From: Gemmatimonadales bacterium
GTDB taxonomy: Bacteria; Gemmatimonadota; Gemmatimonadetes; Gemmatimonadales; GWC2-71-9
Direction of reading: 5' to 3'
NCBI GenBank assembly: GCA_037189525.1
Contig: JBBCJC010000002.1
Location: forward strand, 800,001 to 864,000
DNA: 64,000 nucleotides
Below, piece by piece: positions 401-60,690 of the stretch (positions are counted from its first letter, which is position 1; each line of letters begins with the position of its first letter). A program made the position numbers and the translations under genes. The notes beneath the pieces are model-generated. The model saw only the letters and a program-made list of their open reading frames with translations, ran no database searches and had not been told where the DNA came from.

Positions 401-799
401 GTGTCGAATACCAATCGTCGCCGCCGGGGCGGTCCTGCCCCCAGTGCGGCCCGCAGCTCGGAAACTCTTCGTCGTACGGGCAGTAAATCCTATCAGGCCC
501 ACCGGGACGTCTTGATGGCTCGGTTCGGGCCGGTGTGTGCCTATTGCGGCGAAACCTTTGCGCCGGAAGAGATCACGCTGGACCATGTTCAACCGCGTAA
601 GGGCAAGGTCGCTTACGACCGGTCGGACAACCTGGTGCTGGCGTGTAAGACCTGCAACGCCGCCAAGGCCGATATGCCCTTCCTGGGCTTCCTGCTCGCG
701 CGGCGCTCCCGCGGGGTGTTCCTGCTCCACTATGGAGAGCATCTGTCCGAGGGCATCCGGCAGACCGTTCGGGACCTGGTCGAGAAACCGATCCTCTAA
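401..799 (+). CDS. HNH endonuclease family protein (zinc-binding)
   Basis: CAYC ... TLDHVQP ... [13 protein letters not shown] matches the CxxC...DH...N...CxxCN HNH signature. Its stop overlaps the convergent PPTase stop (796-799). Confidence 0.88.
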
Positions 800-1524
800 A
801 AATGCGGCGGCGGGGTCGGGTCCCCGCTCTTATGGATGCGGACCGACCAGGCGGGATCGGTCCGCGCGACCGCGGCTGCGTAGCCATCGGGCGCCTCGAT
901 CCAGGCGCCGTGGACCGGCGAGGTCCCTTGGTTGGTGACGATGGTGAAACGGTCGCCGGGCCGAGCCTCGTCGAACGCCACCGAAAAGGCTTCGAGCGGG
1001 ATCGACAGCCCGCCGCCTAACGCCTTGATGTAGGCTTCCTTGGCAACCCAGTGCTGATAGAAGAGCGTCCGATGCCGCGCCGGGTCGGCCGCCGCCAGGC
1101 GGGCTCGTTCGCGCGGTGAGAAGACCGTCTCGGCCAGTTCGAGCAGGTCGAAATGATCGTGGCCGTGTTCGATGTCGATGCCGACGTCATGGTCGAGGGT
1201 CAGCGCGATCAGCGCCTCTGACCCCGAGTGCGACAGGTTGAATCGGATCTGGCTGCCCAGGTGGGGTGCGAGTTCCGGTTTCCCGTGCGGGCCCGTGACG
1301 ATCTCGACGTCGGCGGGGGCGAGGTCCAGGTAACTGCCGAGCACCTGGCGAAGGGTGCCGCGGGCGGTGACGTAGACCGACCGGTCCTTGTCGAAGACGA
1401 AGCGGGCGGCGCGTGTTCGTTCCGCGGCGGTGAGCGTCGAGTGCAGCGCGGCGGGAACGGTGGCCGGTACCGAGACCGGCCAGACCTCGATCCGGTCAGT
1501 GTGAAGCGGCGGAGGCGGCGTCAC
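796..1524 (-). CDS. Sfp-type 4'-phosphopantetheinyl transferase
   Basis: Motifs GKPEL, FNLSHS, VGIDIE and WVAKEAYIKALG. Probable GTG start at 1524 (VTPPPPLH...); the ORF-track extension to 1668 lies inside the ABC gene. Confidence 0.93.
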   Translation of the reverse strand: MTPPPPLHTDRIEVWPVSVPATVPAALHSTLTAAERTRAARFVFDKDRSVYVTARGTLRQVLGSYLDLAPADVEIVTGPHGKPELAPHLGSQIRFNLSHSGSEALIALTLDHDVGIDIEHGHDHFDLLELAETVFSPRERARLAAADPARHRTLFYQHWVAKEAYIKALGGGLSIPLEAFSVAFDEARPGDRFTIVTNQGTSPVHGAWIEAPDGYAAAVARTDPAWSVRIHKSGDPTPPPHF

Positions 1525-3142
1525 GTTGCTCGCTTGGTCGCCAGCTGTCGACGATCTGGCCGTAGTCCAGTTTGATGACGCGGTCGCCCAGGTCGAAATA
1601 TCGATCGTCGTGGGTGATGACGACGACCGTCTTGCCGCGGGCCTTGAGCTCGGGCAGCAGCTCCGCATAGAAAATCTGCCGATAGCCCGGGTCCTGATCG
1701 GCGGCCCATTCGTCGAAGACGTAGACGGGACGGTCTTCCAGGTATGCCGCCATCAGGGCGAGCCGGCGTTTCTGTCCCTGTGACAGCGCCGTCGTCGACA
1801 GGACGCCGTCCTTCACGCTCACCTTGTGGTCGAGGCCCAGGCGCACCAGGTATTCACGGGCGCGGGTGTCGATATCGCCGTCGCCCAGACCGGTGACGTC
1901 GGGGAACAGGAAAAAGTCGGAGAAGACGGTTGCGAACTGCTGGCGATAGTTCTCGCGGTTCGCCGCGGTGACGGTCTCGCCGTTCAGCGCGATCGATCCC
2001 TCATCGGGTGGGTACAAGCCCGTCAGCAGTTTGACGAAGGTCGATTTGCCGCTTCCGTTGCCGCCGATGATGAAGACGAGTTCGCCGGGATGCAGCGTCA
2101 GGTCGACGGGGCCTAGTCCGAAGCCGCCGTTTGGATCGGAGCGATCGTAGCGGAAGGCCACGTTGCGGAACTCGATGGTGGCGCCGGGGCGATCCGTTCC
2201 GGCGAGTGGCGCATCTTCGGTGACGCGCTCCAGCGAGAGGCCGAGTTCGTCGATCCGGGCCAGCGCCGTCTGGCCGCGGTGGAAGATCGGAAGCGCGCCT
2301 AGCAGGGACCAGACGGGCCCCATGGCGTAGAGCGCCACGAAGGCAAACCCGGTCAATGATCGAGTCGAGGTCTCGAAGATGGCGGGCAGGGCAAAGAGCA
2401 TGACCCCCATGATCAGGAAGAACATGCTCTGGGTCCAGCCGTCGGCGGCGAGGTAGTGACGGGCCGCGTCGAGGCTCAAGCCGCGCAATCGCTCGGTCGT
2501 CTCCGGGATACTACCAGCCAGCAGATGATCGCGCCGCGCGCGATTCATCTTGATCTCTTTGATACCTTCCGTGATGGTGCGGTAGTGCCGGAACAGGACA
2601 TCGCGTTCGCGCCGCGCCGCGGTGATGGCTCCCGAAGCTCGGCGCATCAGCACTTTGTAGCCGAGCGCGGCCAGGATTCCGAAGATCACGAGCGCCAGCG
2701 CCGACGCCCATGAGAGAGCGGCGAGGTAGATGGTGCATCCCAAGAGCACCGCCGCATTGGTGATCACGGTCGGGATGGCCTGGACCGATGCGGAAAGGGT
2801 CCCGACGTCGTCCGTCAACGTGGTCATGATGCGGGCGGCGCCGATCTCTTCGAGCGTCCGGAACGGCGTTTCGACGACACGCGCACTGAGTTGATTGCAG
2901 AGGCGCAGGATTGCCTGCTGCGCATAGGTCGCGAGGTTCCACTGAGCAATCAGGTTGGTCGCGATGCGCGCCAGCGCGACGGCGATGAAGCCGACGACGA
3001 TCAGCGGGAGATTGGTGGTGTGGAGGGCGGCATTGACCAGCGCCACGAACCCGGCGCTGGCCAGGCCGCCGACGATACCGGCCAGGATGACGGTGATGAT
3101 GCCGCGTCGTCCGGTCCGGAACAGGAAGGCCAGCAGGTTCAT
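1496..3142 (-). CDS. Cyclic peptide export ABC transporter, fused permease/ATPase (PvdE/SyrD/YojI family)
   Basis: Hydrophobic N-terminal TM region, Walker A GGNGSGKST, signature LSQGQKRR, family-typical Walker B region FDEWAADQDP and ITHDDRYF. ATGA overlap with the NRPS stop. Confidence 0.92.
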   Translation of the reverse strand: MNLLAFLFRTGRRGIITVILAGIVGGLASAGFVALVNAALHTTNLPLIVVGFIAVALARIATNLIAQWNLATYAQQAILRLCNQLSARVVETPFRTLEEIGAARIMTTLTDDVGTLSASVQAIPTVITNAAVLLGCTIYLAALSWASALALVIFGILAALGYKVLMRRASGAITAARRERDVLFRHYRTITEGIKEIKMNRARRDHLLAGSIPETTERLRGLSLDAARHYLAADGWTQSMFFLIMGVMLFALPAIFETSTRSLTGFAFVALYAMGPVWSLLGALPIFHRGQTALARIDELGLSLERVTEDAPLAGTDRPGATIEFRNVAFRYDRSDPNGGFGLGPVDLTLHPGELVFIIGGNGSGKSTFVKLLTGLYPPDEGSIALNGETVTAANRENYRQQFATVFSDFFLFPDVTGLGDGDIDTRAREYLVRLGLDHKVSVKDGVLSTTALSQGQKRRLALMAAYLEDRPVYVFDEWAADQDPGYRQIFYAELLPELKARGKTVVVITHDDRYFDLGDRVIKLDYGQIVDSWRPSEQRDAASAASH

Positions 3143-6100
3143 GCGGCTTCTCCGTCGGGTCGCCCTGGCTCGGAGCGATCCAGCACTTCGCTCAGGCGTT
3201 TCCCGAGGTTGACGACGTGCGGTCGTGTCAGCATCAGTCCGGAATCACCGCCCCCGATCGGGATGACTTCCTGGCCATCGGTTGCGCGCGCGGCCCAGGC
3301 GAGCCGCCGGTCACCCAGCCCTTCATCCGGTGCGCGGTCCGAGAAGAAGTGGACGATCCGCCCGCGATAGGTGCCGGGTGAATGGCTCTTCATCGCAAAA
3401 TAATTGGCTTGCTGCACGTCGGTCCGGGTTGCTTCCTGCGCACGGGCCTCGCGGATCGGTTCCGCCTTGGCCTCGGGTACCGGACGGAATACGGCGCGGA
3501 GCCGGGCCCAGCGCCGTTCCGCCGGTTGCTGCCACCAGACGAGCACCCGGTTGATCAGGCTGGCCGGCTTCCGCAGCATCCGATGGCGCGTCAGCTGGCG
3601 GCCGAGTCGGTCTCGCCAGGTGAGGGGACGAGGGGCGGGAACGTCGAGCAGGGCCAGAAGTTCGACCTGTTCCCCCGCCTGCTGGAGCTGAGTGGCCATC
3701 GTGTGAGCGATCATCCCGCCCATGCAGCCGCCCGCCAGGCGATACGGGCCATGCGGCTGTATCTCACGCAGCGCGGCGAGGTATTGCCGGGCCATCTCGT
3801 CGATGGTGCGCAGGAGCGGGGTCCGCCCGTCCAGGCCGATGGCCTGCAGGCCGTAGAACGGCTGCTCGGGGCCGAGTTCTCTCGCGAGGTCGACGTAGTT
3901 GAGGACGTTCCCGCCGATACCGTGGACGCAGAACAACGGCCGCCGGCTGCCACGGGATTCGATGGCGACCAGCGCGCCGGCCGGCCGGGCCGGGCCGGCA
4001 TTGCCCAGGACCTCTGCAAGCTGGGCAACCGTCGGAGCGGCCAACAGGGTCGCCAGCGAGAGCCGCTGACCGAACTCGCGCTCGATCGATGCAAACAGGC
4101 GCACCGCAACCAGGGAATGGCCGCCGAGGGAGAAGAAGTCGTCGTGGATGCCGACGGCCGGGACCTCGAGCGCCTCTTCCCAGAGGCGGCAGAGTCGCAG
4201 CTCGTTGGCGTTACGCGGCGGTGTCCGTTCGATGCTCGCGGGCGCCGACTGCAGTCGGGGAAGGGCGCGGAAGTCGACCTTGCCGTTCGGAGTCCGGGGC
4301 AACGCGGGCAGGATGCCGATGGCGCTGGGGACGGCGTAGGCCGGCAGTAGCGCAGCAAGCGCACGGCGGATCTCATCGAGGTCCGGTGGCGTGTCCCATG
4401 CGCCCGCCAGGTAGGCAACCAGGCGGATCTGGTCCGGCTCGGCGCCGTCGGTCGACGCAACGGTCTCGCGGACTCCCGGTATCCGAGCGAGGGCAGCTTC
4501 GACGTCGCCCAGCTCGACCCGGAATCCCCGGATCTTGATCTGCCGATCGGCGCGGCCGATGAAATCGATCGCGCCGTCGATGCGGTAGCGCCCCAGGTCG
4601 CCGGTGCGGTAGACCCGATCGTCGCTGAGCCCAGTGTATCCGTTTGGCGGGAACCGTTGCGCCGTGAGGTCGGGCTCCCGATGGTAGCCGGCGCTCAGGT
4701 AGGGCGTCCGGATCACGATTTCACCCGGTTCGCCGATCCCGGCGAGCTTGCCGTTCCGATCGAGGACCAGCAGTTGCACGTCGGCGATGCCGCGTCCGAT
4801 CGGAATGCTGCCCGTCTCCGGCGCAGCGGAACGATCGAGGTCGGCGTAACCCATCAATTGCGGCGTTTCGGTCGCGCCGTAGCCGTTCACGATCCGGGCC
4901 TCGGGTGCCAGCCGAGCGAACCGGTTGAGGCGGGCTCGGGTCAGCCGATCGCCGCCGAAGCAGACGAGGCGGAGCGAGGGAAGCGACAACGAGGCGTCGC
5001 CGGGATCCGCGATCAGTTCGACCATCGGCGGGGTCAGATGGGTGACGGTGACCCGCGCATCGCGCAGCCAGCGGCCGAGGTGGCCGGGGCCTTCGATCAG
5101 GTCACCGTCAGGTACGCACAGGGCGCCGCCGACCCAGATCGGCGCCAGCAGGTCACGCAGGAGCGGGTCGTGCGCCAGGCCGGACAGCATGCTGATCCGG
5201 TCCGACGGTCCGAGCTCGAAGGTTTCCTGGTACCACTCGCAGAAGTGGCCGAGTGGGCGGTGTGTGCCGACGATGCCTTTGGGCGTGCCGGTGGTTCCGG
5301 AGGTAAACGCCAGGTACGCAGTGTCGTCGGGTCCGACCTCGACGGCGAGTGGCGTTGCCGGGTGCTGCCGGGCGGCGGTGTGTGCCAGGTCGGCGCCGCT
5401 GCCGAGCGGAACGCGGGTCCAGCGTCGTTCGGCGATGATTGCTTCGAGGTCGGGGGCGAGCGGTGTCTTCTGATCGAGCCGGATCAGGATCGAGGGATCA
5501 GCCAGGTCGATGATCTGGGCCAGCCGTTCGGTCGGATAGGCCGGATCGAGGATCACGAACGCCGCACCGGTTTCCAGGGTGGCGAGGATCGCGAGCAGGA
5601 GGCTCGGATCGCGCGCAGCAAGCACTGCCACGACGGTGCCCGGACGAGCGCCCTCTTGCGCCAGCGCATTCGCGACGCGCCGGACCGCCTGATGCAACTC
5701 GCCATATCGCCACTGGTAAGCCCCGGCATCGAGCGCGATGTGGTCGGGGCTCTGCTCGGCGTGCCGAGCCAGCTGTGTGCCGACCGTGCCGGCCCAGGTG
5801 CTGGCCAGCGGAGCGACCGGGTCCGGAAGGACGGTTCGCGCCTGGGGCGTGACGAGGGAGATAGTCTCGATGGCGGCGTCCGGGTCCGAGGCGACGGCAT
5901 CGACCAGTTGGCTGTATTGTGCCAGCATCTCATCGATGCGGGCGGCGTCGAACAGGTCGGCGTTGTAGACCAGGGTCAACCGAAGCCCGGGACGATGGTC
6001 GACCGCGTACAGGGTCAGGTCGAACTTGGCCTCATCGGGAACGCCGCCACGGTGTTCGATGGCGACGCCGGGCAGCTGAAACGTATTGGTGGCAAACGCC

Positions 6101-7281
6101 AACAAGTTGAAGAACACCTGGAACAGCGGAGTCCGGCTCGGGTCGGGCGGCGGCTTCAACTCGGCGATGACGCGCTCGAGCGGGACGTCCTGGTGCAGGT
6201 GGGCTTCGCGGGTCGCGGTCCGCATCTGGCCCAGCAGGTCGCGGAAGCTGGGCCGGCCCTCGAATCGGGTGCGCAGCACGACCGTATTGACGAAGAACCC
6301 GATCAACCCCTCGGTTTCTGGGCGGCCGCGCCCGGCATATGGGGCGCCGATCAGAATATCGTCCTGGCCGGAGAGCCGATGCAGCAGGGCGCCGAACGCG
6401 CCAAGCAGCGCCGCGAACGGGGTCGTCTGTTCGGCTCGGCACAGCGTCAGCAGAGCCTGTTCGGTCGCTCCGCTCAGGTCGAAGGTGCGCTGTCCCGCCC
6501 GGAAGGTGCGCACGGGAGGACGGGGCCGGTCGGTCGGCAGGTCCAGCGCGGTCGGCGCGCCGGCCAGGCTGTCCCGCCAGTAGCGCACATGGGGCTCGGC
6601 ATCCGCACCTTCCGCCCAGGCGCGATGCCAGGCGGCGAAATCCCGGTACTGGATTGGCAAGTCGGGCAGGCTCGGCGCGCCGCCGGCGATCAGGGCCTTG
6701 TAATGGGCGGTCAGTTCGCGGAAGAAAACGTGAATCGACCAGCCATCCGAAATGATGTGATGGAATACCATCACGAAGATGTGGTCGTCCGGTCCGAGTC
6801 CAATCAGGGTAGGGCGGAACAGCGGTCCCTGGTGCAGGTCGAACGGCGCCGCCATCAATCGTTCCGCCGTGTTCCATCCCGCCTGCTCGCGCTCGCCTGG
6901 CGGGAGCGTCGTCAGGTCGATGGCCTCGATCGAGACGCTCTCGGGCGGGTGCGCGACCTGGGTGGCGCCCTCGGGTCCGGAGACGAACGTCGTCCGCAGG
7001 GTTTCATGACGGCGTACGATTTCGCGGATGGCCGCTTCGAAAGCCGGCCGATCGAGCGGTCCCCGGAGCCGGAATGCGAACGGGATGGTGTAGGCGGTAC
7101 CATCGGGTTGCAGCTGATCGGCCAGCCACAGGCGCTCTTGATAGAGGGAGAGCCGGGCGGGGCCGCTTCCGTCTACGCGGGGCAGGGTGGCCTTCGTCTG
7201 GTCCGAGCCGGCGGCGGCCCGCTCGAGCAACAGTTGCTTGAGCCGGCGGCGCTTTTCGGCAACCGGATCTGGCGTCGTCAT
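3139..7281 (-). CDS. Single-module NRPS: docking-C-A-PCP-TE (about 1380 aa)
   Basis: C domain HHIISDGWS; A domain FTSGTTGTPKG, NGYGATET, YRTGDLGR, QIKIRGFRVE, NGKVD; PCP FFSLGGHSL; TE LAGGCMGG. Start placed at ATG 7281 (MTTPDPVAEKRRRLKQLL) because the upstream 66 codons lie in AT-richer intergenic DNA. Confidence 0.95.
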   Translation of the reverse strand: MTTPDPVAEKRRRLKQLLLERAAAGSDQTKATLPRVDGSGPARLSLYQERLWLADQLQPDGTAYTIPFAFRLRGPLDRPAFEAAIREIVRRHETLRTTFVSGPEGATQVAHPPESVSIEAIDLTTLPPGEREQAGWNTAERLMAAPFDLHQGPLFRPTLIGLGPDDHIFVMVFHHIISDGWSIHVFFRELTAHYKALIAGGAPSLPDLPIQYRDFAAWHRAWAEGADAEPHVRYWRDSLAGAPTALDLPTDRPRPPVRTFRAGQRTFDLSGATEQALLTLCRAEQTTPFAALLGAFGALLHRLSGQDDILIGAPYAGRGRPETEGLIGFFVNTVVLRTRFEGRPSFRDLLGQMRTATREAHLHQDVPLERVIAELKPPPDPSRTPLFQVFFNLLAFATNTFQLPGVAIEHRGGVPDEAKFDLTLYAVDHRPGLRLTLVYNADLFDAARIDEMLAQYSQLVDAVASDPDAAIETISLVTPQARTVLPDPVAPLASTWAGTVGTQLARHAEQSPDHIALDAGAYQWRYGELHQAVRRVANALAQEGARPGTVVAVLAARDPSLLLAILATLETGAAFVILDPAYPTERLAQIIDLADPSILIRLDQKTPLAPDLEAIIAERRWTRVPLGSGADLAHTAARQHPATPLAVEVGPDDTAYLAFTSGTTGTPKGIVGTHRPLGHFCEWYQETFELGPSDRISMLSGLAHDPLLRDLLAPIWVGGALCVPDGDLIEGPGHLGRWLRDARVTVTHLTPPMVELIADPGDASLSLPSLRLVCFGGDRLTRARLNRFARLAPEARIVNGYGATETPQLMGYADLDRSAAPETGSIPIGRGIADVQLLVLDRNGKLAGIGEPGEIVIRTPYLSAGYHREPDLTAQRFPPNGYTGLSDDRVYRTGDLGRYRIDGAIDFIGRADRQIKIRGFRVELGDVEAALARIPGVRETVASTDGAEPDQIRLVAYLAGAWDTPPDLDEIRRALAALLPAYAVPSAIGILPALPRTPNGKVDFRALPRLQSAPASIERTPPRNANELRLCRLWEEALEVPAVGIHDDFFSLGGHSLVAVRLFASIEREFGQRLSLATLLAAPTVAQLAEVLGNAGPARPAGALVAIESRGSRRPLFCVHGIGGNVLNYVDLARELGPEQPFYGLQAIGLDGRTPLLRTIDEMARQYLAALREIQPHGPYRLAGGCMGGMIAHTMATQLQQAGEQVELLALLDVPAPRPLTWRDRLGRQLTRHRMLRKPASLINRVLVWWQQPAERRWARLRAVFRPVPEAKAEPIREARAQEATRTDVQQANYFAMKSHSPGTYRGRIVHFFSDRAPDEGLGDRRLAWAARATDGQEVIPIGGGDSGLMLTRPHVVNLGKRLSEVLDRSEPGRPDGEAA

Positions 7282-7898
7282 CGAAGGCCGAATCGGGTGG
7301 AGGACGTGATCATAGGCACGAATCGACCTAAGAAGTGCAATTTCTATGCACCATAAGATATGGTGTTGCTTAGAGGCATCACCTTCGCGTCGTTTTGCGA
7401 GAAACCTCGCTTTCAGCGGTCGCCCTGATGGCCGGGGACCGGTCAATATGGTCGGGTCTGCCGGAGCGCCGGGTCTCACTTCCTGTTGTGTTGATGTAAG
7501 TTATTGTAATATATGTAGCTTACGGTTCAGGTCATGAGGGGATTCCTGGGAGAGAATCGGGGTCGGGCAGGAACCTGACATGCGGCGCTGAGACTACACT
7601 GGAGTGCTCAGTCGTTGCATGCGCGCGACGACGACGTTAATTGGGGCGTGGTGTTTCGCCTGCGATAGACCCGAACGCCGTTGTCGGTTCCGGGGAAACC
7701 GAGGGGATGGCTTTCCCCTCTCCCTCGGCACAGTCGTTGCCTTATCTATGGGGTTGCGGGAGTTCTGGCCCTCGTCGGTTTACCGGACCACCTAGCGAAT
7801 GACTTGCGTTCGGGGCGTCGAAGGCTGGCCCGCGCCGGGGTCTCGTTCGCCTCCGTTGGTGGGAAATCCGGGCGAGGTTGCACAACCAAGGGCACTCA
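7282..7898. promoter_or_regulatory. Divergent promoter/leader region between the NRPS operon and the PKS operon
   Basis: About 600 bp with no credible ORF and visibly AT-richer stretches (7320-7380, 7480-7530). Contains a perfect palindrome CACCATA-AGA-TATGGTG (7349-7365), an imperfect inverted repeat GTAAGTTA-N12-TAGCTTAC (7496-7523) and hairpin-forming sequence at 7692-7728. Confidence 0.7.
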
Positions 7899-8699
7899 AT
7901 GTTGCGTCGCGAAGAAATCCAGGCATCGAACGGCTGGGTAGTCGCTGTCGGACGGAATCCGGCGGCGACGGTGCGCCTGGTGTGCTTCCCGCCTGCCGGG
8001 ACCGGGGCCGCATCCTACCGCGGCTGGTCTGAGTCGGCGCCTGGGTGGCTCGAAGTCTGTGCCGTTCAGTTGCCTGGCCGGGAAACCAGACTTCGCGATG
8101 TCCCGATGACTGACCTCGATCGGCTGATCCCGGAGCTCGGGAAAGCGCTGTTGCCGGTTCTGGACCGGCCGTTTGCCTTTTACGGGCACAGCCTGGGCTC
8201 GATCATCGCGTTCGAGACGGCGCGATGGCTCCGGCACCAGGGTGCTCCGCTGCCCGCAGCCATGTTCGTCGGCGCCAGCCGTCCTCCCCAGTTTCCGTGG
8301 CCCGATCCGCCGGTTCGGGATCTGCCGGACCTCGAGCTGCTCGAGGAGGTCAATCGCCGCTACGACTCGGTGCCCGATGTCGTGATGGCGGAACCGGAAC
8401 TCCGCACGCTGCTCACGCCCGCGCTTCGGGCCGACATGGCGTTGATCGAGACCTACCGGTATCGATCCGAAATGCCCTTCGATTTTCCGATTCAGGCCTT
8501 CTGGGGCGCCGCGGACCGGAAGGTGGCGCAGGCGGATATGGCACAGTGGCAGGAGCAGACGCTTGGTGCGTTCGAGCTCCAGCGCTTTGCGGATGGGCAT
8601 CTTTTCCTGTTGCCTCGCCGGCAGGACATCGTTGCGGCAGTCGCATCGCTGCTGACCCGATCGATGGCGGTCGGGTCTGAACGTCCCGGACGCCCCTGA
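7899..8699 (+). CDS. Type II (editing) thioesterase
   Basis: LVCFPPAGTGA, VQLPGRETR, FYGHSLG nucleophile motif, LRAD and C-terminal GHLF. ATG 7899 preferred over TTG 7878. TGATG overlap with PKS1. Confidence 0.93.
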   Translation: MLRREEIQASNGWVVAVGRNPAATVRLVCFPPAGTGAASYRGWSESAPGWLEVCAVQLPGRETRLRDVPMTDLDRLIPELGKALLPVLDRPFAFYGHSLGSIIAFETARWLRHQGAPLPAAMFVGASRPPQFPWPDPPVRDLPDLELLEEVNRRYDSVPDVVMAEPELRTLLTPALRADMALIETYRYRSEMPFDFPIQAFWGAADRKVAQADMAQWQEQTLGAFELQRFADGHLFLLPRRQDIVAAVASLLTRSMAVGSERPGRP

Positions 8700-11600
8700 T
8701 GACGGACGGCGTGTCGCCACCTCGAATCGAACCTCGCGCTCGCGCGCCGATTGCGGTGGTGGGTATCGGCTGCCGGTATCCCGGTGGGATCGTCGACGCG
8801 GCGTCGTTTTGGCGCGTCGTCGCCGGCGGTGTCGACACGATTACCGACATCCCGGCCGATCGCTTCGATCTGGCGCGCTGGTACGATGCCAGACCCGGGA
8901 TGCCGGGGCGGATCGGCAGTCGCAAGGGCGGATTCGTTGGGCCGGTCGATCGCTTCGATGCCTATCTGTTCGGAATTTCGCCGCGGGAGGCGGAGCGGCT
9001 GGATCCGCAGCAACGGTTGCTGCTCGAAGTGGCCTGGGAGGCCTTTCTCGACGCCGGGATGGATCCGTCGGGTCAGGAGGGCAGCCGCTGCGGCGTCTAT
9101 GTCGGCCAGTGGGTCGGCGAGTACGAAAGCCGCCTCTTTGCCGACCCGACCACGATCGACTTCCACTCGACCCAAGGCACCGGGCGGTACGCCAGCTCCG
9201 GACGATTGTCGTACACGTTTGGATTGTGCGGACCGAGCGTGACGCTCGATACGGCCTGCTCGTCGTCGCTGGTTGCTACGCACCTGGCGATCAACAGCCT
9301 GCGGTCGGGCGAAACGAATGCGGCCCTGGTCGGCGGCGTCAATCTGATCCTGCAGCCGCACACCACGATTGCCTACTCGCGCGGCCGGATGATGGCCTCC
9401 GATGGCCATTCGAAGTTCGGCGATGCCTCGGCCAACGGCTATGTCCGGGCGGAGGGGGCGGCGGTGCTGCTGCTCAAGCGGCTCGATGACGCCGAGCGCG
9501 ACGGCGACCGAGTCTATGCCGTGCTGCACGGCAGCGCGATCAACAACGATGGGCGCAGTTCCGGATTGTTCGGGCGACCGAGCCGGAGCGGCCAGGTCTC
9601 GCTCCTGGTCGATGCGTATCGGGACGCGGGAGTTCCAGCGCAGCAACTGAGTTTCGTCGAAGCGCACGGAACCGGTACCCGGGCCGGCGATCCGGTCGAG
9701 CTCGATGCGCTGGCCGAGGTGGTGGGGCGGGAGCGATCGGCGCCGCTCTGGGTCGGGTCGATCAAAACCAACATCGGGCACACGGAAGCGGCGGCCGGTC
9801 TGGCTGGTCTGATCAAAGCATCGCTCAGCCTCTATCACGGGGTGGTGCCGCCGAGTCTGCATTTCCGCGAACCGACATCGTCGTTCGACTGGAGCGCCTC
9901 GTCGTTGCAGGTGCCGACGGCGGCGGTGACGCTGGAGGGCGATCGCGACCGGTGGCTCGGTGGGGTGACCTCGTTCGGGATCTCCGGCACCAATGCCCAT
10001 GTCGTCGTCGGAACCGGTCCTCAGCGCGCTCCGGTTCCGGTGCGCTCGGCTGGGCTATTGCTTCCTCTTGCCGCGCATATCCCCGCGGCCCTGGGTCAGT
10101 ACGCAAAGGCTCTGGCCGATCGGTTCGAGCACGCTACCGCAGCGGAAGTCGCGCGGACGGCCGCTGTGCTCGCTCGGCGGTCGAGTCTGCCCCATCGCGC
10201 CGCGATTGTGGGTGGCGACGTAGCCGCCGTAGTCGCCGGGTTACGCGCGCTGGCGGACGGTGAACCGGCGGCGGGCCTGGTTACCGGGGAAGCACCGATC
10301 GAGGGGCGGCATCGGACGGCGCTGGTCTTTCCGGGCCAGGGTGGGCAGTGGCTCGGCATGGGGCGGCGACTGCTCGAGACCGAGCCGGTGTTTGCGCAGA
10401 CCGTGGCGGCAATCGATGAGGTGCTTGCTCCGCTGGTCGACTGGTCTGTGACCGAGCAGCTGCAGCTCGATCCGGCCGATCCCACGTGGCAGCTCGATCG
10501 CATCGACGTGATCCAGCCCGTGCTGGTGGCGCTGGAGATGGCGTATGCGGCGCTGCTGCGCGACTACGGGATCCGGGCGGACGGCGTGGTCGGGCATAGC
10601 ATGGGCGAGGTCGGCGCCGCCTGGTATGTGGGTGCACTTTCGCTGGCTGATGCGATGACGGTCATCGTACATCGGAGCCGGCTGCTGCGCACTGTGGCCG
10701 GCGCCGGAGCGATGGCGGTGGTCGAACTTGGTGATGCCGATGCTCGCGCGGCTATCGGAGCGCGGACCGACCGAGTCGGTGTGGCAGTTCGGAATGCGAG
10801 CAACAGTTCGGTCTTGAGCGGTGATCCCGATGCGGTGGGCGAAATCATCGCTGAACTGGAAGCACGCGGCGTTTTCACCAGGTATGTGAAGGTCGATGTC
10901 GCTTCGCACAGCCCGCAGATGGATGCGCTGACGGGTCCTCTGGTCGACGCATTGGGCGCCATCGTGCCTGGAGCGACGGCGATCGCGATGTATTCGACCG
11001 TACTGGCTGAGCCGCTGGCTGGCAGCGGAACGACGGCCGCGTACTGGGGACAGAATCTTCGCGAACCGGTCCGCTTTGCGGAGACGATCGACCGGATGCT
11101 GGCCGACGGCTACGACACTTTCATCGAGGTTGGTCCGCATCCGGTGCTCACGTCGGCGGTGACGCGCGTAGCTGAGGATCGCGGCGCCGAGGTGCGGGTG
11201 TTGTCCACCGGCCGCCGGGATGAGGATGCTCAACTCGAGTTCCTCAATCTCCTGGGTGAGTGCCATGTCGCCGGCCTTCCGGTCGACTGGCATCGGGTCT
11301 ATCCCGGGCCGATCGACCACGATCTCGAGTTGCCGCCGTTTCCGATGGTGCGGGAGCGTTACTGGTTCGATCCGGGGCTCGAGGCCGTTACCGAGGGCGG
11401 GGCAACCGGTCATCCGCTCTTGGTTGCGCCGTTCGCCGCGGCAGTCGGTGTACGCGGCTGGGAAGCCTCGGCGCAGCGGATCGGAACGACGTGGCTCGCG
11501 GATCATGTGGTGCGGCAGTCGGTTCTCTGGCCCGCTGCGGCGAGTGCGGAAGGGTTGCTGGCCGCCGTGTCGGATGCGGCAGGCGGCAACTGGTTTCTGC

Positions 11601-14600
11601 GCAATGTCCGGCTCCATGAGGCGCTGCCGGTCGAGCCGGCGCGGCCGGTCCGCCTGCAGTGGTCCGAACGGGGCGATGCCAAGGGGCGGCATGTCTCATT
11701 GCACGCGCGTGAAGGTGGTGACGAGTCCGGGTGGCGCCTGATTGCGGATGCGACAGCCATTCCGCGTGTATCGGACCGGCAGGCCGTAGCGATCGATGCG
11801 CCACACGCTGCTGATTTGGTCGAGTCCGGCGAGGATTTCTACCGCCGGTTGCGACTGCGCGGGTTGGAGTATGGGCCGGCTTTTCAGACGATTACGGAAG
11901 TCCGATCGGGTAAGGACAACGCGGAAAGTCGGTTGGCGTTGCCGCAGCCGGTCCTTACCGATCCGGGTCTCGAGCGCTATCGGGTGCATCCGGTCCTCAT
12001 CGATGCTGCGCTGCAGACGATCATCGCGGCTGCGGTTGGTCCGGATAACTCGAGGGTGACTACGCCGTTGCCGGTCCGCATCGGAACCTTCGAGGTCGGC
12101 TCGGCCTCGTGGCAGAGTGGGCCGCTCGCTGTGCGGGCGAGCGTTACCGATCGGTCGCCGGGCGGATTTACGGGCAATGCCGTTGTTTCGGATTCCGAGG
12201 GTCGGCTGATCGCGACCCTCGAATCGGCCGGGTTTGCCTGGACCGGAGTCGAGACAGGGACGATCGACGAGACGTTCTTCTCGCTCGATTGGGAGCCGGT
12301 GGAGTTGGTCAATGCCGAGGTGGAAGGGCGCCGGTTCGTCGTGATTGGCGATCGGGAAGCGAGCCTGGCCGGATCACTCCGGGCTCGGGGCGGCCAGGTC
12401 GACGCGGTGTCCTCGTTGGATGCGTTGACGGCCTTGGGGGACCTGCCCGGAGCGTGCGATGTCATCTGGTGCGTCGATGGCGAAGGATCGAGCCAGGATC
12501 AGGTAATGCGCGGCGAGCAGCTCGTCACGCAGGCGGTTCGCCTGGGGCAGTGGTGTACGGAACGAGACAGCCAGGTCGCGCGGGTTGTCGTGGTGACACG
12601 TGGCGCGGTTGGGTTTGGGGGTGACGGGGCCTGCGACGTCGCGGTTGCGGCCACACGCGCCGTCGGCCGGGTGCTCGGTCATGAGGTGCCGGGGCTGCTG
12701 GTTCAGGCGGTCGACTTGCCGGTCGATGGAAGCTGGGGAGAGGCGCTTCCGGCCTCGATCGCCGCGTCGGCCGATGCGGAGCTGGCGTATCGTGACGGCC
12801 GATGGTACGCCGCACGTTTGGGTTCGTTTGCGGTACCTGAGGCGCGAGTTGGCGTAGATGAGTCGTATCAGTTGACGCTCTTGTCTCCCGGATCGCCCGA
12901 TCAGCTCGAGTGGGTTGCTCGCGGGCGGCGCGCCCCGGGGGCTGGGATGGTCGAAGTCGAGGTCGAGGCGGTCGGCCTCAACTTCATGAATGCCCTGAGC
13001 GTGCTCGGCGCTTATCCCGGCGCGCCGAACGGGGTTGGTTCACTCGGCCTCGAAGGCGCCGGCCGAGTCTCTCGGGTTGGCGAAGGTATTAGCCATGTGG
13101 CCCCTGGCGATCGGGTGCTCTTCGTGGCGCCGGACGCCATGGCCCGCCATGTCGTGACCTCGGGTGAGTTGGTCGTACCGGCGCCGACCACCGATCCCGC
13201 CGAGGTTCTCGCGGCGCTGCCGATTGCGTACCTGACGGTCCACTACGGTTTGGGTGTTCTGGCGCGGCTCTGCCGGGGCGACCGCGTCCTGATTCACAGT
13301 GCCGCGGGCGGTGTCGGGCTCGCGGCCATTGCCTATGCCCGGATGTGCGGTGCAGAGGTCTATGCGACGGCGGGCACGGCCGAGAAGCGGGAATGGCTCA
13401 AGTCGCTCGGTGTGCATCATGTATTCGACTCGCGCTCGCTGGCCTGGGCCGATGCCGTGCTCGAGGCGACGGGTGGCGAGGGCGTCGATGTCGTGCTCAA
13501 CTCCCTGGCGGGTCAGGCGCAGGAGCGTGGCCTCGACGTGCTGCGGACGGATGGCCGTTTCGTCGAGATCGGCAAGCGTGACATCTATGATGATCGCGCG
13601 CTTTCGCTGGGGGCATTTCGGAACGGTCTTGCCTTCTTTGCCGTCGACCTGGACCGAATGATTCGGGAGCGTCCCGATCGGGTCGGAGCGATGCTGCGGG
13701 ACGTCAGCGTGATGATCGGGGCGGGGCAGCTCGAGCTTCTGCCGGTCGAAACGTTCCCGGCGGATCAGGTCGGCGATGCTTTCCGGCGGATGTTGCCAGG
13801 TACGCATCGCGGGAAGCTCGTGGTCTCGCTCGCGGTGGCGCCGTCGCGACTCGCGCTCGGCCCGGCCGTTGCGCCCATTCGGGATCATGGCACGTATCTC
13901 GTCACCGGCGGACTGGGCGCTTTGGGTCTGGTCGTGGCGTCGTGGCTGGTCGAGCGCGGTGCGGGCGCGATCGTCCTGGTCGGGCGTCGAGCGCCGGATC
14001 AGGCGACGAAAGCCAAACTCGACGAACTGGCCCGGCGGGGTACCAGGATCGAAACACGTGCATTCGATATCGGCGATCGCGATGCCGTGACGAGCCTGTT
14101 CGCTTCCCTGAGCGGGCTTCCGGCGCTTCGTGGCGTCTTCCACCTTGCCGGTACGCTCGACGATGCGCCGATCTCGGCGCTCACGCCCGAGCGGATTGCG
14201 GTGCCGTATCGGCCCAAGGCGGCGGGCGGGCTACATGTTCTCGATGCGGCGCGGGCGCATCCGCTCGATTTTGCGGTCGCGTTCTCGTCGGTGGCGTCGC
14301 GGTTCGGGACACCCGGGCAGGCCAATTACGCGGCGGCCAACGCCGTACTGGATGCGCGCGCGGCTAATACAGAAGCACGGTTGCTCAGCATCAACTTCGG
14401 GCCGTTCGCATCGATCGGTCTAGCCGCGGCAGACCCTGCGCGTTTGAGTGCGCTGGCGCGGCAGGGGTTCGGCGCGCTCGACGGCGAAGAGGCTCTGCTC
14501 GCGCTCGATCGGTTGCTCGGCGCGGGTGTTCGCGGGGCGGTGACGGTTGCGCGGTTCGATGCTGAGCGCTGGGTGTCGGGTAAGGACGACGCGGATCGGC

Positions 14601-15055
14601 GATGGGTGGCCCGATTGCTGGATGGCCGGACTGATGAACCTGCGCAGCCAGTGATGGTGTCGTGGCGGGGGCAGGTCGAGGCTATTCCGCCCGGGCGCCC
14701 GCGCCGCCGTGAGCTCGAACGGCTGGTGACTGCGGAGGCCGCTGCGGCGCTCCGCCTGCCGCCCGCGCAGATCGGAGTCGACCGCCCGCTGCGGACGCTG
14801 GGGATGGATTCGTTGCTGACACTCGAGTTTCGCAAGCGGCTCGAGCGCGCGACCGATCTCCGGGTCGGCGCCCCCGTCTTTTTCAGTCATCCCACGGTGG
14901 CGGCGTTGACCTCGTATCTGGCGGAGCGGTGGGAACTGCCGCTCGATGCCGCGGCGGTTGCGGACGATAGCGAGCTCGAGACGCTGCTCGACGATCTGTC
15001 GGCGCTGAGTGAGGAAGAACTCGATGCGTTGCTGGGCGACGGAGGTGGCGCGTGA
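8699..15055 (+). CDS. PKS1: KS-AT(methylmalonyl-type)-DH-ER-KR-ACP
   Basis: KS DTACSSS/HGTGT/KTNIGH; AT RIDVIQP, GHSMG, VDVASH; DH LADHVVRQSVLWP and [52 protein letters not shown]. Confidence 0.95.
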   Translation: MTDGVSPPRIEPRARAPIAVVGIGCRYPGGIVDAASFWRVVAGGVDTITDIPADRFDLARWYDARPGMPGRIGSRKGGFVGPVDRFDAYLFGISPREAERLDPQQRLLLEVAWEAFLDAGMDPSGQEGSRCGVYVGQWVGEYESRLFADPTTIDFHSTQGTGRYASSGRLSYTFGLCGPSVTLDTACSSSLVATHLAINSLRSGETNAALVGGVNLILQPHTTIAYSRGRMMASDGHSKFGDASANGYVRAEGAAVLLLKRLDDAERDGDRVYAVLHGSAINNDGRSSGLFGRPSRSGQVSLLVDAYRDAGVPAQQLSFVEAHGTGTRAGDPVELDALAEVVGRERSAPLWVGSIKTNIGHTEAAAGLAGLIKASLSLYHGVVPPSLHFREPTSSFDWSASSLQVPTAAVTLEGDRDRWLGGVTSFGISGTNAHVVVGTGPQRAPVPVRSAGLLLPLAAHIPAALGQYAKALADRFEHATAAEVARTAAVLARRSSLPHRAAIVGGDVAAVVAGLRALADGEPAAGLVTGEAPIEGRHRTALVFPGQGGQWLGMGRRLLETEPVFAQTVAAIDEVLAPLVDWSVTEQLQLDPADPTWQLDRIDVIQPVLVALEMAYAALLRDYGIRADGVVGHSMGEVGAAWYVGALSLADAMTVIVHRSRLLRTVAGAGAMAVVELGDADARAAIGARTDRVGVAVRNASNSSVLSGDPDAVGEIIAELEARGVFTRYVKVDVASHSPQMDALTGPLVDALGAIVPGATAIAMYSTVLAEPLAGSGTTAAYWGQNLREPVRFAETIDRMLADGYDTFIEVGPHPVLTSAVTRVAEDRGAEVRVLSTGRRDEDAQLEFLNLLGECHVAGLPVDWHRVYPGPIDHDLELPPFPMVRERYWFDPGLEAVTEGGATGHPLLVAPFAAAVGVRGWEASAQRIGTTWLADHVVRQSVLWPAAASAEGLLAAVSDAAGGNWFLRNVRLHEALPVEPARPVRLQWSERGDAKGRHVSLHAREGGDESGWRLIADATAIPRVSDRQAVAIDAPHAADLVESGEDFYRRLRLRGLEYGPAFQTITEVRSGKDNAESRLALPQPVLTDPGLERYRVHPVLIDAALQTIIAAAVGPDNSRVTTPLPVRIGTFEVGSASWQSGPLAVRASVTDRSPGGFTGNAVVSDSEGRLIATLESAGFAWTGVETGTIDETFFSLDWEPVELVNAEVEGRRFVVIGDREASLAGSLRARGGQVDAVSSLDALTALGDLPGACDVIWCVDGEGSSQDQVMRGEQLVTQAVRLGQWCTERDSQVARVVVVTRGAVGFGGDGACDVAVAATRAVGRVLGHEVPGLLVQAVDLPVDGSWGEALPASIAASADAELAYRDGRWYAARLGSFAVPEARVGVDESYQLTLLSPGSPDQLEWVARGRRAPGAGMVEVEVEAVGLNFMNALSVLGAYPGAPNGVGSLGLEGAGRVSRVGEGISHVAPGDRVLFVAPDAMARHVVTSGELVVPAPTTDPAEVLAALPIAYLTVHYGLGVLARLCRGDRVLIHSAAGGVGLAAIAYARMCGAEVYATAGTAEKREWLKSLGVHHVFDSRSLAWADAVLEATGGEGVDVVLNSLAGQAQERGLDVLRTDGRFVEIGKRDIYDDRALSLGAFRNGLAFFAVDLDRMIRERPDRVGAMLRDVSVMIGAGQLELLPVETFPADQVGDAFRRMLPGTHRGKLVVSLAVAPSRLALGPAVAPIRDHGTYLVTGGLGALGLVVASWLVERGAGAIVLVGRRAPDQATKAKLDELARRGTRIETRAFDIGDRDAVTSLFASLSGLPALRGVFHLAGTLDDAPISALTPERIAVPYRPKAAGGLHVLDAARAHPLDFAVAFSSVASRFGTPGQANYAAANAVLDARAANTEARLLSINFGPFASIGLAAADPARLSALARQGFGALDGEEALLALDRLLGAGVRGAVTVARFDAERWVSGKDDADRRWVARLLDGRTDEPAQPVMVSWRGQVEAIPPGRPRRRELERLVTAEAAAALRLPPAQIGVDRPLRTLGMDSLLTLEFRKRLERATDLRVGAPVFFSHPTVAALTSYLAERWELPLDAAAVADDSELETLLDDLSALSEEELDALLGDGGGA

Positions 15056-44800: not shown

Positions 44801-45362
44801 CGATCCGCAGACGATGGTCGCGAGTATCGATTGGTCTGTTCTGCGTCCCTTGCATGAGGCCCGTCGCACCCGTCCCTTGCTCGCGGCGCTGGTCACCCGC
44901 GCGGTCGCTCCAACGCCGGGCACACGGACGGCCGTGTCGGCGCGAGTCTCGCTCGAGGACCAGCTGAATCTGGCGCAGGGTTTGTCGCGTCGGGATGTCA
45001 TCCTGCGGTTCGTATCGGGCGAAGTCGCCGGGGTTCTCGGCCTGGAGGCTGGAGCGTTCGTTTCTCCGGCCGTCGGTCTGTTCGAACTGGGCATGGACTC
45101 GCTGATGTCGGTGGAACTGAAACGGCGGCTGGAACAGGGCACCGGGCGTACTCTGCCGTCGACCCTGACGTTCAACTATCCGAACGTCGGGGCGCTGACC
45201 GGGTTTCTGGAACAGCTCTTTCCCGAGCAAGCGCCGGATCCGATCGCCAATCCGTCGAATCGTGTTGGGCAATCTGGGCCGCCGGAATCGCAGCCCGATG
45301 CGAATGAGGACGTCGATGACATCGCCGCCCGGCTCCGCGCGGCGCTGGAGGATATCGGCTGA
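38814..45362 (+). CDS. PKS6: KS-AT(atypical)-DH-cMT-KR-ACP
   Basis: KS DTACSSS; AT GHSVG, ISLAAHS; DH DHRVFGRIIAP and HPTQLDAVLQ; C-MT LEIGAGTGGTT, NVLHAT, FGLTDGWW; KR GGFGGLG, lacks LDD, AHYAGAN; ACP GMDSL. Confidence 0.94.
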
Positions 45363-46264
45363 TGCCGGCGAGCCGGGTCGAACGATCGCTGGTAACGCGG
45401 TTAGGCGCGGGGCGCACCGCCGTTCTCGCCATGGCGATTGCCATGGTGGGATGGGTGGCGGTGGAGGCCGCGGGCGTAGCCGTGATTGCCAGGATTCCGG
45501 CCCTGCAGCTGATCTGGTCCCGGTATCTCGTCCATCTGCTGTTCATGGCGGTGTTCGTCATCCCCCGGGTGGGGACCGGATGCCTCCGAACCCGCCACCC
45601 GTTCGTCCAGATCGGCCGATCGCTGCTCATGCTCGGCATGCCGGCGGCCTGGCTTGCCGCGGCCGATCGGCTCAGTCTGAGCACGGTGATGGGCATCTTC
45701 TGGCTGACCCCGATCGTGGCCATGGTCGGTGCGCTGATCTTCCTGCGCGAGCGTGTAACGGTTAGCCAGATTGCCATCGCCGGGGTCGGGTACGCAGCGA
45801 CCGTTGCGATCCTTCGGCCCGCCTTTCCAGGGGATCTCCTCGGCGTGCTACTGGTCGGGGCGATGCTCGGCTGCTTCGCGGGGTACATCGTGCTGACCCG
45901 GTGGCTCCGGCGCGAGCCGACGGAGACCAATCTGTTCTATACGGCGCTGGGTGTCTTTGTCGCCATGCTCGTGTTCATTCCCTCGATCTGGCAACCGGTG
46001 CCCACCGAGTTGTGGCTCCCGATCGTCGCGATCGGCCTGCTGGGGTACCTCGTGCTGCATCAGCTCGATCGCGCGCTTCACCTCGCCCCGGTGGCATTCG
46101 TGGCGCCGGTGGTGTTCCTTCAGCCGCTGCTCGAGGTCATGGTCCGCGCCGGGAAGAACCCGGGCGCGCTGATTCTGCGACAATGGGTCGGTTTTGCGAT
46201 GCTCCTGGCGGTCGGATTCGTGGTGCTGCGTCTGGCGCGAGATGTGCGCGAGGAGGCCGTATGA
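45362..46264 (+). CDS. DMT/EamA family membrane transporter
   Basis: 300 aa, very hydrophobic, with roughly ten TM-like segments in two similar halves and EamA-like motifs (LIWSRY, QIGRSLL, FWLTP...FLRERV). Overlaps both neighbours (TGATG and ATGA). Confidence 0.85.
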
Positions 46265-52200: not shown

Positions 52201-52716
52201 TATGTCGCCGTCCTGGCCATGGATCGGACTCGATTCGGCCGGCAGGCGAGTCCAGCACTTCGGTCGCTGCTTCGATTGTCCGGTGCCGAAGGGGGGCCGT
52301 CCGCCAGTGGCGACGGTGCGCTCGAAGCCGAACTCACTGCCCGGCGCGGGCGTGCGCGCTACGACTATCTGGCCGATCGGATTCGCGGGCAGGTCTGCGC
52401 GGTGCTCGGCCTGTCTGATACGCAGCTGGCGTCGGACAATGAAGGGTTGACGGTGCTCGGGATGGACTCGTTGATGGCGATGGAACTGCGGACCCGACTG
52501 CAGCAGCTCACGGGACGTTCCTTCCCGGCCACCATCGCGTTTGAGCACCCCACCGTGGCGGCGCTGACGACCGTGGTACTGTCGGCGCTGGCGTTGCCGG
52601 ATGACGGGCCGGAGGACTCGGGAGACTCGACCGACGGTACCGAAGACGAGGCTGATCTCGCGGCGGATGAGATTGCCCGGCTGCTCAACGAAGAACTCGA
52701 TCGCGGGGGATTCTGA
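46261..52716 (+). CDS. PKS7: KS-AT(malonyl)-DH-ER-KR-ACP (about 2151 aa)
   Basis: ATG 46261 has a GAGGAGG SD and a docking helix ([24 protein letters not shown]). [33 protein letters not shown] and [42 protein letters not shown]. Confidence 0.95.
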
Positions 52717-52720
52717 CCGC

Positions 52721-59322: not shown

Positions 59323-60609
59323 CTACTGGGCGGCAGGGCCTTTGACCACCTTGCCCGCGTGCATCACCCAGCTGACCCGCTCCGTTACCGTGATGTCCTG
59401 GAGCGGATCGCCGGGCACGGCAATCAGGTCTGCCAGCCGCCCGGCCTCGATCACACCGCGGTCGGTCTTGCCCAACGCATCCGCTGCGTTCACCGTGGCC
59501 GTGCGCAGGGCATCGATCGATGACAGCCCGTATTTGACGTAGAGCGCCAGCTCCTTGGCATTCTCGCCGTGCGGGTAGACGCCGGCATCCGTTCCGAACC
59601 CGATCTTCACGCCCGCCGCGATGGCTTTCTTGAGGCTCTCTTGCGCAATCGGCAGGATCGTCTCCGCTTTCTTGCGGATCAGGGCAGGCAGCACGGCAAG
59701 ATTGATCCGTCCGACGAGATAGGTGGTCGGAACCAGATAGGTACCGTGCTGCTTCATCAGCTGGATCGCCTCGTCATCGAGTTCCGAGCCGTGCTCGATC
59801 GAGGTGACGCCGGCGCGCACCGCCGCTTTGATCCCGGCGTTGCCGTGCGAATGGGCCGCCACGCGGACCCCGTGGCGCGCGGCCTCATCCACCATCGCCT
59901 TGAGTTCTTCGTAGCTGTACTGCTGCGCGCCAACCGGACCCTCGAGCGACAGGACGCCGGCGGTTGCGCAGGTCTTGATGACTTGCGCCCCGTGCTTGAT
60001 CTGATACCGGACGGCCCGGACCACGTCCCACGGCCCATCCGCCACGCCATCCTCGACGCGCTGCTCCAGCACACCGGGCGCGAATCCGGTCAGGTCGCAA
60101 TGTCCGCCCGTAATGCCGAGCGCGTTGCGGGAGGGAATCACGTGCGGGCCGGTGATGATCCCCTTCTCGATGGCATGGCCGAGCGCCACGGTGTTGTCGC
60201 CGCCGAAATCGCGGACCGTGGTCACGCCCGCGTTGATGGTCCGCAGGGCGTACTGCACCGTGTTGAACGCTTCGGCGGCCGGCGTCGTCGTCGCGGCGGC
60301 GGTAAACGAGCTCGCGCCGATTTCCCCGGAAAGGTGGGTGTGCAGGTCGATCAGGCCGGGCAGCAGCGTCACGTCGCCCAGATCGATGGTGCGCGCGCCG
60401 CGGGGGGCCGAGGCCGGATTGACGGCCTTGATCCGGTCGCCCTCGATCACGAGGACGGGGTTGCGCACCAGCTGGCCTCCGACCACGTCGACCATTCGGG
60501 CGGCGCGGATCACGATCGGGGTGGCAGCTTGCTGCGCGCCGAGTGGCGTGATCTCGCCTGCTGCGCTGGTGAGGATCAGGGCGGACAGGGCGACTGCGGA
60601 CAGACGCAT
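59323..60609 (-). CDS. Secreted metal-dependent amidohydrolase (Xaa-Pro dipeptidase / carboxypeptidase-like, HutI-related superfamily)
   Basis: N-terminal signal-peptide-like segment; PGLIDLHTH, GVTTVRD, IKTCATAGV, AAHSHG, SIEHG and FGTDAG binuclear metal-site motifs. Confidence 0.9.
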   Translation of the reverse strand: MRLSAVALSALILTSAAGEITPLGAQQAATPIVIRAARMVDVVGGQLVRNPVLVIEGDRIKAVNPASAPRGARTIDLGDVTLLPGLIDLHTHLSGEIGASSFTAAATTTPAAEAFNTVQYALRTINAGVTTVRDFGGDNTVALGHAIEKGIITGPHVIPSRNALGITGGHCDLTGFAPGVLEQRVEDGVADGPWDVVRAVRYQIKHGAQVIKTCATAGVLSLEGPVGAQQYSYEELKAMVDEAARHGVRVAAHSHGNAGIKAAVRAGVTSIEHGSELDDEAIQLMKQHGTYLVPTTYLVGRINLAVLPALIRKKAETILPIAQESLKKAIAAGVKIGFGTDAGVYPHGENAKELALYVKYGLSSIDALRTATVNAADALGKTDRGVIEAGRLADLIAVPGDPLQDITVTERVSWVMHAGKVVKGPAAQ

Positions 60610-60647
60610 GGATTCCTCCGAAGGGCAATCAACGAATATCGTGGGTC

Positions 60648-60679: not shown

Positions 60680-60690
60680 CGGGAGTCGCG

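Follow-up and report, generated by a model that had tools for sequence, protein, structure and literature searches.

How does a nonribosomal peptide synthetase (NRPS) release its chain when the thioesterase (TE) at its end has no histidine at the catalytic position? The question is raised by an open reading frame (ORF; positions 3139–7479, minus strand) coding for a C-A-PCP-TE synthetase in the 64,000-nt stretch of DNA that we analyzed, here called the window (positions 800,001–864,000 of contig JBBCJC010000002.1, from a Gemmatimonadales bacterium). The characterized NRPS TEs in the literature covered, in the portions of those sources that were available, all use His, whether their nucleophile is Ser or Cys. 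The TE of the window shares with 139 others a Cys nucleophile, an Asp-Ser-Gly (DSG) sequence at the loop of the catalytic His and two arginines. From their conservation, these residues probably form an active, His-free Cys acyl-transfer site, and we tentatively propose that the acyl-Cys is released to a nitrogen nucleophile (amine or amide) rather than to water.

Catalytic residues of the terminal thioesterase

Residue numbers count from the GTG at 7479; translation of the NRPS probably begins at the ATG at 7281, where its orthologue P0002 also starts. The TE domain (residues 1173–1446; 3142–3963, minus strand, as is the whole gene) has an alpha/beta-hydrolase fold, as indicated by Pfam PF00975, an AF2 model and its structural matches. 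Its nucleophile elbow, GGCMGG within LAGGCMGG, contains Cys1252 (TGC at 3726–3724), and the position-I acid after beta6 is Asp1279 (3643–3645, in LLDVP), aligned with the Asp of AB3403 and EntF. In place of the usual GDHxxML the protein reads GGDSGLML (3252–3229), with Asp1412-Ser1413-Gly1414 (3238–3246) where the catalytic His loop should be, and a histidine, His1421 (3217–3219), follows in RPHV (3225–3214). Arg1382 (3334–3336), directly past beta7, and Arg1392 (3304–3306), in DRRLAW, are specific to the group described below. The Cys and the missing His had both been pointed out in an earlier sequence-only reading of this DNA, and both hold.

The window sequence does not contain any N, and Cys1252 and GGGDSGLMLTRPHV are kept in the orthologues P0002, P0003 and P0004 and in the congener genome G048, whose TEs are 93, 79, 74 and 75 % identical to the window copy, respectively. 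All active-site residues (elbow, Asp1279, the DSG of the His loop and RPHV) are likewise kept in these four, including the Asp-Ser pair whose conservation the sequence-only reading had proposed to check. An assembly error behind the Cys and DSG codons, which that reading had named as its possible refutation, is of negligible probability, because identical residues occur in P0002–P0004 and G048 with synonymous codon differences close by. The dN/dS relative to G048 was 0.19 for the TE, 0.20 for the C domain and 0.47 for the A domain, with values of 0.16–0.20 across the TE domain. The residues are real, and the domain is maintained by purifying selection. P0002 is 93 % identical to the window TE, yet the last 50 residues of its NRPS nearly match P0004 (74 %), which looks like recombination between orthologous clusters.

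A TE-only profile was aligned to the solved structures of AB3403 (4ZXH) and of the Skyxy TE (7CRN). The catalytic His of AB3403 (PGDHSS) and that of the Skyxy TE align on Asp1412, not on Ser1413, and when 544 distinct TE domains are aligned, the column of Asp1412 contains His in 365 of the 370 normal TEs (306 with Ser and His plus 64 with Cys and His). By these alignments, the substitution is of His by Asp, followed by a fixed Ser-Gly. The absence of His from the canonical position is thereby upheld, with the correction that Asp1412, and not the Ser, fills the slot. The AF2 model, made from a 75-row alignment, has a regular TE fold (pLDDT 92), with beta8 at model residues 231–236, a short helix at 241–244 and the last helix, which starts at His1421, at 249–264. 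Its top structural matches were Skyxy TE 7CRN (Z 24.5) and AB3403 4ZXI (Z 24.3), with ObiF1 (Z 19.2) and SulM (Z 18.4) scoring lower. The domain thus resembles a PF00975 type I TE in its fold C-terminal to the PCP, the Cys in the elbow and the acid at position I, and departs from it in having Asp1412 in the column of the catalytic His after beta8. In a plasmid search, the best match over the full domain was at most 37 % among the 15 of 901 matches listed.

A group of cysteine thioesterases without the catalytic histidine

Two truncated domains were removed from the alignment for counting. The remaining 542 comprised 306 domains with Ser and His, 64 with Cys and His, 162 with Cys and no His, one with Ser and no His and nine with another elbow residue; His was thus absent from 162 of the 226 Cys TEs versus one of the 307 Ser TEs, in a sample enriched by profile search, so that these counts are not natural frequencies. 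When the sample was chosen by A-domain similarity, four of ten Cys TEs and none of 39 Ser TEs lacked His.

A common signature, consisting of Cys, DSG at the His loop and two Arg, unites 140 of the 162 His-less Cys TEs. The group was defined by requiring the Cys, and five sequences with a GHDSG loop were counted as members, not as His-bearing. Among its members, Arg1382 is found in 137, Arg1392 in 128, Asp or Asn at position 1412 in 134 (118 Asp, 16 Asn), Ser1413 in 132 and Gly1414 in 135, and the position-I acid is Glu in 95 and Asp in 42. Normal TEs have Arg in the column of Arg1382 in 47 of 370 cases (112 are gapped there) and in that of Arg1392 in 9 %, and the DSG loop was found in none of the 307 Ser TEs. 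The fixation of Arg1382, Arg1392, Asp/Asn1412, Ser1413 and Gly1414 along with the loss of His would speak for an active site. The window TE has the Cys, the D/N-S-G loop and both arginines, and the named members come from Gemmatimonadota, Rokubacteria, Steroidobacteraceae, Lysobacterales and Nitrospirota. The remaining 22 His-less Cys TEs do not have the Arg pair and, from their sequences, look like separate His losses.

Other unusual TEs were found alongside. Those of L007, L009, L010 and L011, from the family of the window genome, are PCP-TE proteins of ca. 370–430 residues whose elbow contains Cys and whose loop is of GPxGC type, without His at this loop in three of them; the set, which does not have the Arg pair, is a separate His-less group. 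A further group of Cys TEs without His, marked by a PVYPAGML-type loop (L037, L046, L054, L073, L081, L085, P0058 and P0204), often occurs as PCP-TE proteins of ca. 400 residues, and P0141, P0146, P0147 and P0148 contain tandem TEs in which one copy has no His and carries Asp in the nucleophile position of the elbow.

The position of the window lineage in the group is less straightforward. It does not have the Pro1186 (it has His1186), Glu1279, Trp1281 and lid RGD of the main group, and its N-terminal half is about as close to Ser TEs (mean 0.51) as to the group (mean 0.52). Trees built without the motif columns set it apart, with weak support, and an AU test on 39 of the 544 rows did not reject a single origin with the main group (p-AU 0.46). 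The divergent layout of the window (NRPS, ABC exporter and phosphopantetheinyl transferase opposite a type II TE and polyketide synthase (PKS) genes) recurs in G349 and G296, two genomes from its order, with a main-group TE; both contain genes similar to those of PKS modules M1, M5 and M6 of the window, and G349 also one similar to M4. This favors common descent of the window lineage and the main group over convergence. Judging from its residues, the window lineage forms a divergent branch in which the normal Asp and the HG loop have been retained, and it isolates the Cys, the two Arg and the DSG as the minimal signature. The clusters of these two genomes (G349:C7:35322–85066 and G296:C13:347833–392297) have fewer PKS modules, an internal NRPS module and the terminal A codes DVRRFGTINK and DVRRLGTINK.

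The genomic contexts of the members are diverse. In 121 of 132 protein records the TE is the last domain, and the other 11 continue into a long tail, which in annotated records is a thiamine-diphosphate enzyme. We observed the layouts NRPS-PKS(KR)-C-A-PCP-TE, FAAL-ACP-C-A-PCP-TE (L027 and L080) and A-PCP-TE-TPP. The A codes, obtained for 100 of the 140 members, belong in about two thirds of cases to the DAFWLGGTFK family, which we take to be Val-like, followed by a DILQLG type, presumably Gly-like, a non-amino-acid type (11) and DPRH codes (5, the window lineage). Nine of the 16 group loci contain a homologue of the cyclic-peptide exporter, and three a type II TE; no type II TE was present within the fetched DNA, in some cases short, of the other 13. 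The fusions of A-PCP-TE(DSG) to a thiamine-diphosphate enzyme (L014:7919–12574, P0274, P0292, P0310, P0315–P0317, P0340 and P0344) have A domains without the amine-binding Asp, with codes SAAHAARLLK or SATHAARLLK, and their architecture suggests acyl transfer to an acyloin-type product.

Substrate and routes of release

The A domain (4279–5769) is Lys2-like (TIGR03443, 344 bits), with the code DPRHCGGQLK. The A1 domain of zeamine has the code DPRHLALLAK (PMC3547906), and zeamine Zmn16 A1, with its DPRH code, is reported to place a side-chain-linked gamma-Asp (PMC5811116). By analogy, the A domain of the window is predicted to activate the side-chain carboxyl of Asp, Glu or aminoadipate. Its Lys2-like character and the zeamine analogy indicate that the PCP probably carries an N-acylated dicarboxylic amino acid, tethered through the side chain. 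The supplement of PMC12283262 contains no DPRH codes and does not decide between Glu, Asp and aminoadipate. The A domain diverges faster than the C domain (54–55 % versus 69–70 %), and the codes differ between orthologues (DPRHCGGQLK versus DPRHCGFQAK); a substrate shift or a domain swap is possible.

The acyl chain is encoded by eight single-module PKS genes (8699–59242, plus strand). Module M2 (KS-AT-MT-KR, no DH) provides the only predicted free hydroxyl, M4 has an MT without KR (a predicted ketone), and all four PKS MTs look like C-methyltransferases from their sequences. M8 (KS-AT-DH-ER-KR-ACP, with intact DH, ER and KR motifs) is predicted, from gene order and the look of its docking domain, to donate the chain to the NRPS. 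Since this last module is fully reducing, Dieckmann release as a tetramate, which needs a beta-keto group on the acyl chain, is unlikely and was discarded.

In the mechanism that we propose, the polyketide-acylated amino acid would move from the PCP to Cys1252 as a thioester. Thiol-thioester exchange from phosphopantetheine to Cys needs only a thiolate, which Arg1382 and Arg1392 could stabilize in place of His, and the natural loss of His almost solely in Cys TEs fits an exchange that needs no strong base. Other folds, in the nitrilase and isochorismatase families, also contain His-free Cys acyl-enzymes with a carboxylate and a cation. Deacylation at a site without a strong base would suit a nucleophile that needs little activation, i.e., an amine; because amines attack thioesters without a His base, Asp1412 and Asp1279 might suffice to bind and deprotonate it, while the arginines organize the site or hold a carboxylate. 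Here, the substrate would be an eight-module, mostly reduced polyketide amidated onto a side-chain-held Asp or Glu, and the product a side-chain amide formed with an amine from outside; an N-acyl pyroglutamate imide would be less likely. We also count in favor of a nitrogen nucleophile, by analogy, that the H218A mutant of the amine-cyclizing MacB-TE is described as "reduced" (PMC13288461), versus an approximately 80-fold drop, as with C1146A, for H1284A of ObiF1, whose nucleophile is a hydroxyl (PMC6668435). The FAAL-type members L027 and L080, in which no internal hydroxyl or amine is obvious, are counted on the same side. In its broadest form the proposal would make the group an unnamed, widespread class in which a Cys/Asp/Arg/Arg site replaces the Ser-His-Asp triad. 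Such domains would be ligases that need no His and couple the products of the assembly line to a free amine or amino acid bound by Asp and Arg; the site would yield a branched polyketide-acylated isopeptide here, and in the A-PCP-TE-TPP fusions the acyl would be handed to the product of the thiamine enzyme. As a whole this is speculative, and we consider it rather doubtful.

Part of the evidence weighs against release to nitrogen or against the role given to these residues. We did not find a shared amine-making or acceptor gene among the loci examined. The pyroglutamate route cannot be family-wide, judging by the Val-like or Gly-like codes of most members. DPRH modules directly before a TE end in a normal His TE in 19 of 20 cases and in a DSG TE in one (P0400), and side-chain activation was therefore rejected as a rule implying a special TE. 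In ObiF1, R1263, which lies nine residues past the position-II Asp, is reported to be dispensable. The window lineage, moreover, is without the main-group residues listed above and keeps its own histidines at 1186, 1259, 1299, 1366 and 1377. A sugar acceptor was also considered; there is no glycosyltransferase among the scanned ORFs of the window or of the 17 kb upstream, and polysaccharide genes lie nearby in one (L028) of seven named loci scanned.

The sequence-only reading had considered non-standard release through an ObiF- or SulM-like route, a relocated base in RPHV or an inactive domain. Non-standard release is plausible, now with a conserved site, as are transfer to an external nucleophile and formation of a lactam or imide, which that reading also listed; the three routes just named are weakened. 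A relocated His, be it His1421 or a lineage-specific residue such as the lid His1299, completing a Cys-His-Asp triad would agree with the retention of histidines 1421, 1299, 1259, 1366 and 1377 in all five window-lineage sequences, which are, however, close kin. His1421 opens the last helix, nine residues after the His slot, and belongs to an ordinary PHV motif: its column contains His in 164 of the 370 normal TEs and in 86 of the 140 group members, and the 54 members without it include 29 with Asn, 7 with Tyr and 5 with Cys. In every other column at most 42 members have His, and the TE of P0019 contains no His at all. We therefore rejected the RPHV His as the base and regard any relocated His as very improbable. 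A dead domain with a binding or structural role, the chain being offloaded by a type II TE or by solvent, could be defended from the near-essential His of ObiF1 (in the parts of that study available) and from the intact type II TEs of the window cluster, G048, G349 and G296. Against it speak purifying selection on the TE, a Cys in 140 of 140 members (bearing in mind the membership rule) together with a DSG loop seen in none of the 307 Ser TEs, and the 13 loci without a detected type II TE, and we judge it improbable.

If the site is active, the main rival to release to nitrogen is plain hydrolysis, in which Asp1412 would activate water and a free N-acyl amino acid would leave. It is the sole outcome open to every substrate in the group, whether the A code is Val-like, Gly-like or dicarboxylic or the A domain is of the non-amino-acid type, and whether the donor is a FAAL or a PKS, and it needs no acceptor gene, of which none is common to the loci. 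A normal triad would suffice for hydrolysis, however, and the conserved Arg pair would be left unexplained; in the portions of the literature available, characterized Cys TEs avoid hydrolysis, and it is their Cys-to-Ser mutants, MacB C89S and ObiF1 C1146S, that hydrolyze. We consider hydrolysis unlikely but a serious contender. Macrolactonization, by attack of the M2 hydroxyl (at ca. C15) on the Cys thioester to give a 20–21-membered ring through the amino acid side chain, is suggested by the KS-AT-MT-KR architecture of M2, by the adjoining exporter of cyclic-peptide type and by the many members that follow a KS-AT-KR module (L028, L053, L120–L122 and G349). It is a distinctly unlikely route: hydroxyl attack required His in ObiF1, as far as reported, methyl groups on either side are predicted to shield the M2 alcohol, L123 has no KR, and the FAAL-type members do not have a hydroxyl of this kind.

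These observations make it likely, from sequence comparison, that the window TE releases its product by a chemistry not yet described for NRPS TEs. A conserved His-free group in Gemmatimonadota, Nitrospirota, Proteobacteria and Rokubacteria would alter the prediction of release for many clusters from uncultured bacteria, which annotation would call broken or treat as ending in ordinary hydrolases, and an aminolytic ligase, if confirmed, would be a candidate tool for C-terminal amidation. What the window adds is the divergent sub-lineage, at the end of an eight-module PKS and behind an unusual A domain.

The gene cluster and known thioesterases

The cluster measures 58 kb. Upstream of the TE in the NRPS are the PCP (4009–4197, GGHSL) and the C domain (5836–7155, with an intact HHIISDG). 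The TE is directly followed by the cyclic-peptide-type ABC exporter (1496–3142, minus strand; TIGR01194, 471 bits) and a phosphopantetheinyl transferase gene (796–1668, minus strand). On the plus strand there is a type II TE gene (7878–8699) with intact GHSLG, GAAD and DGHL motifs, followed by modules M1–M6, one per gene (8699–45362), an EamA-like transporter gene within the PKS operon (45362–46264), and modules M7 and M8 (46261–59242). The starts of M7 and M8 are probably at 46261, overlapping the EamA stop, and at 52721 (longest ORFs, 45901–52716 and 52601–59242). In the first PKS (8699–15055) the KS has its normal Cys and the AT motif is methylmalonyl-like, and there is neither a loading module nor a docking domain; the G048 orthologue of this PKS scored best against Pks2/Mas-like models, and we saw no gene in the cluster that would activate a starter. 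G048 retains the neighboring transketolase, phosphopantetheinyl transferase, ABC exporter, type II TE (71 %) and PKS M1 and M2. The flanking genes on the opposite strand (59323–63999), coding for an amidohydrolase that looks secreted and for a 2-oxoglutarate dehydrogenase in which E2-like and E1 domains are fused, are probably unrelated to the cluster.

We found no description of a His-less NRPS TE in the open-access literature, which leaves out most subscription papers, and a 2023 review mentions, in the parts available, only Asp-His-Ser/Cys triads (PMC10510592). The closest match in both sequence and structure is the bifunctional Skyxy TE (7CRN/7DXO; profile E 2e-37), an epimerase/cyclase that, unlike the window TE, has a Ser nucleophile with His. 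AB3403 from Acinetobacter baumannii (4ZXH/4ZXI; rmsd 4.0 over 232 aligned residues) shares the C-A-PCP-TE organization, a Cys elbow (GWCFGG) and the position-I Asp, but retains His where the window has Asp1412, in a complete Cys-His-Asp triad of the kind also found in MacB, and does not have the Arg pair; its pathway is described, in the available text, as having no defined product (PMC10510592).

ObiF1 (6N8E) and SulM (8W2D), which form a beta-lactone and a beta-lactam, share the Cys nucleophile and are non-hydrolytic; they are reported to group with type II TEs and to combine a His with an acid at position II (PMC11298585). The window TE, without a His and with its acid at position I, matches both structures less well than AB3403 or Skyxy; past beta7 its conserved residue is Arg1382, and Asp1381 is restricted to the window lineage. 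This argues against the ObiF/SulM analogy drawn in the sequence-only reading, as do, for a SulM-type beta-lactam, Gly-Cys-Met instead of Gln-Cys-Asn at the elbow, a DPRH code instead of a Dap-type A domain and the absence of a sulfotransferase from the 19 window ORFs that were scanned. For the ring closure that pyroglutamate formation would require, Dol15F TE offers a precedent of a five-membered N-acyl ring, although as a proposed, not reconstituted, amide-nitrogen cyclase acting on a beta-keto PKS product (PMC13643306). MacB-TE and PmxB-TE are alike in their Cys nucleophile, and in them an amine attacks the Cys thioester and the acid position is tolerant, being replaceable in MacB-TE; unlike the window TE, they act on decapeptides with a Cys-His-Asp triad of their own (PMC13288461).

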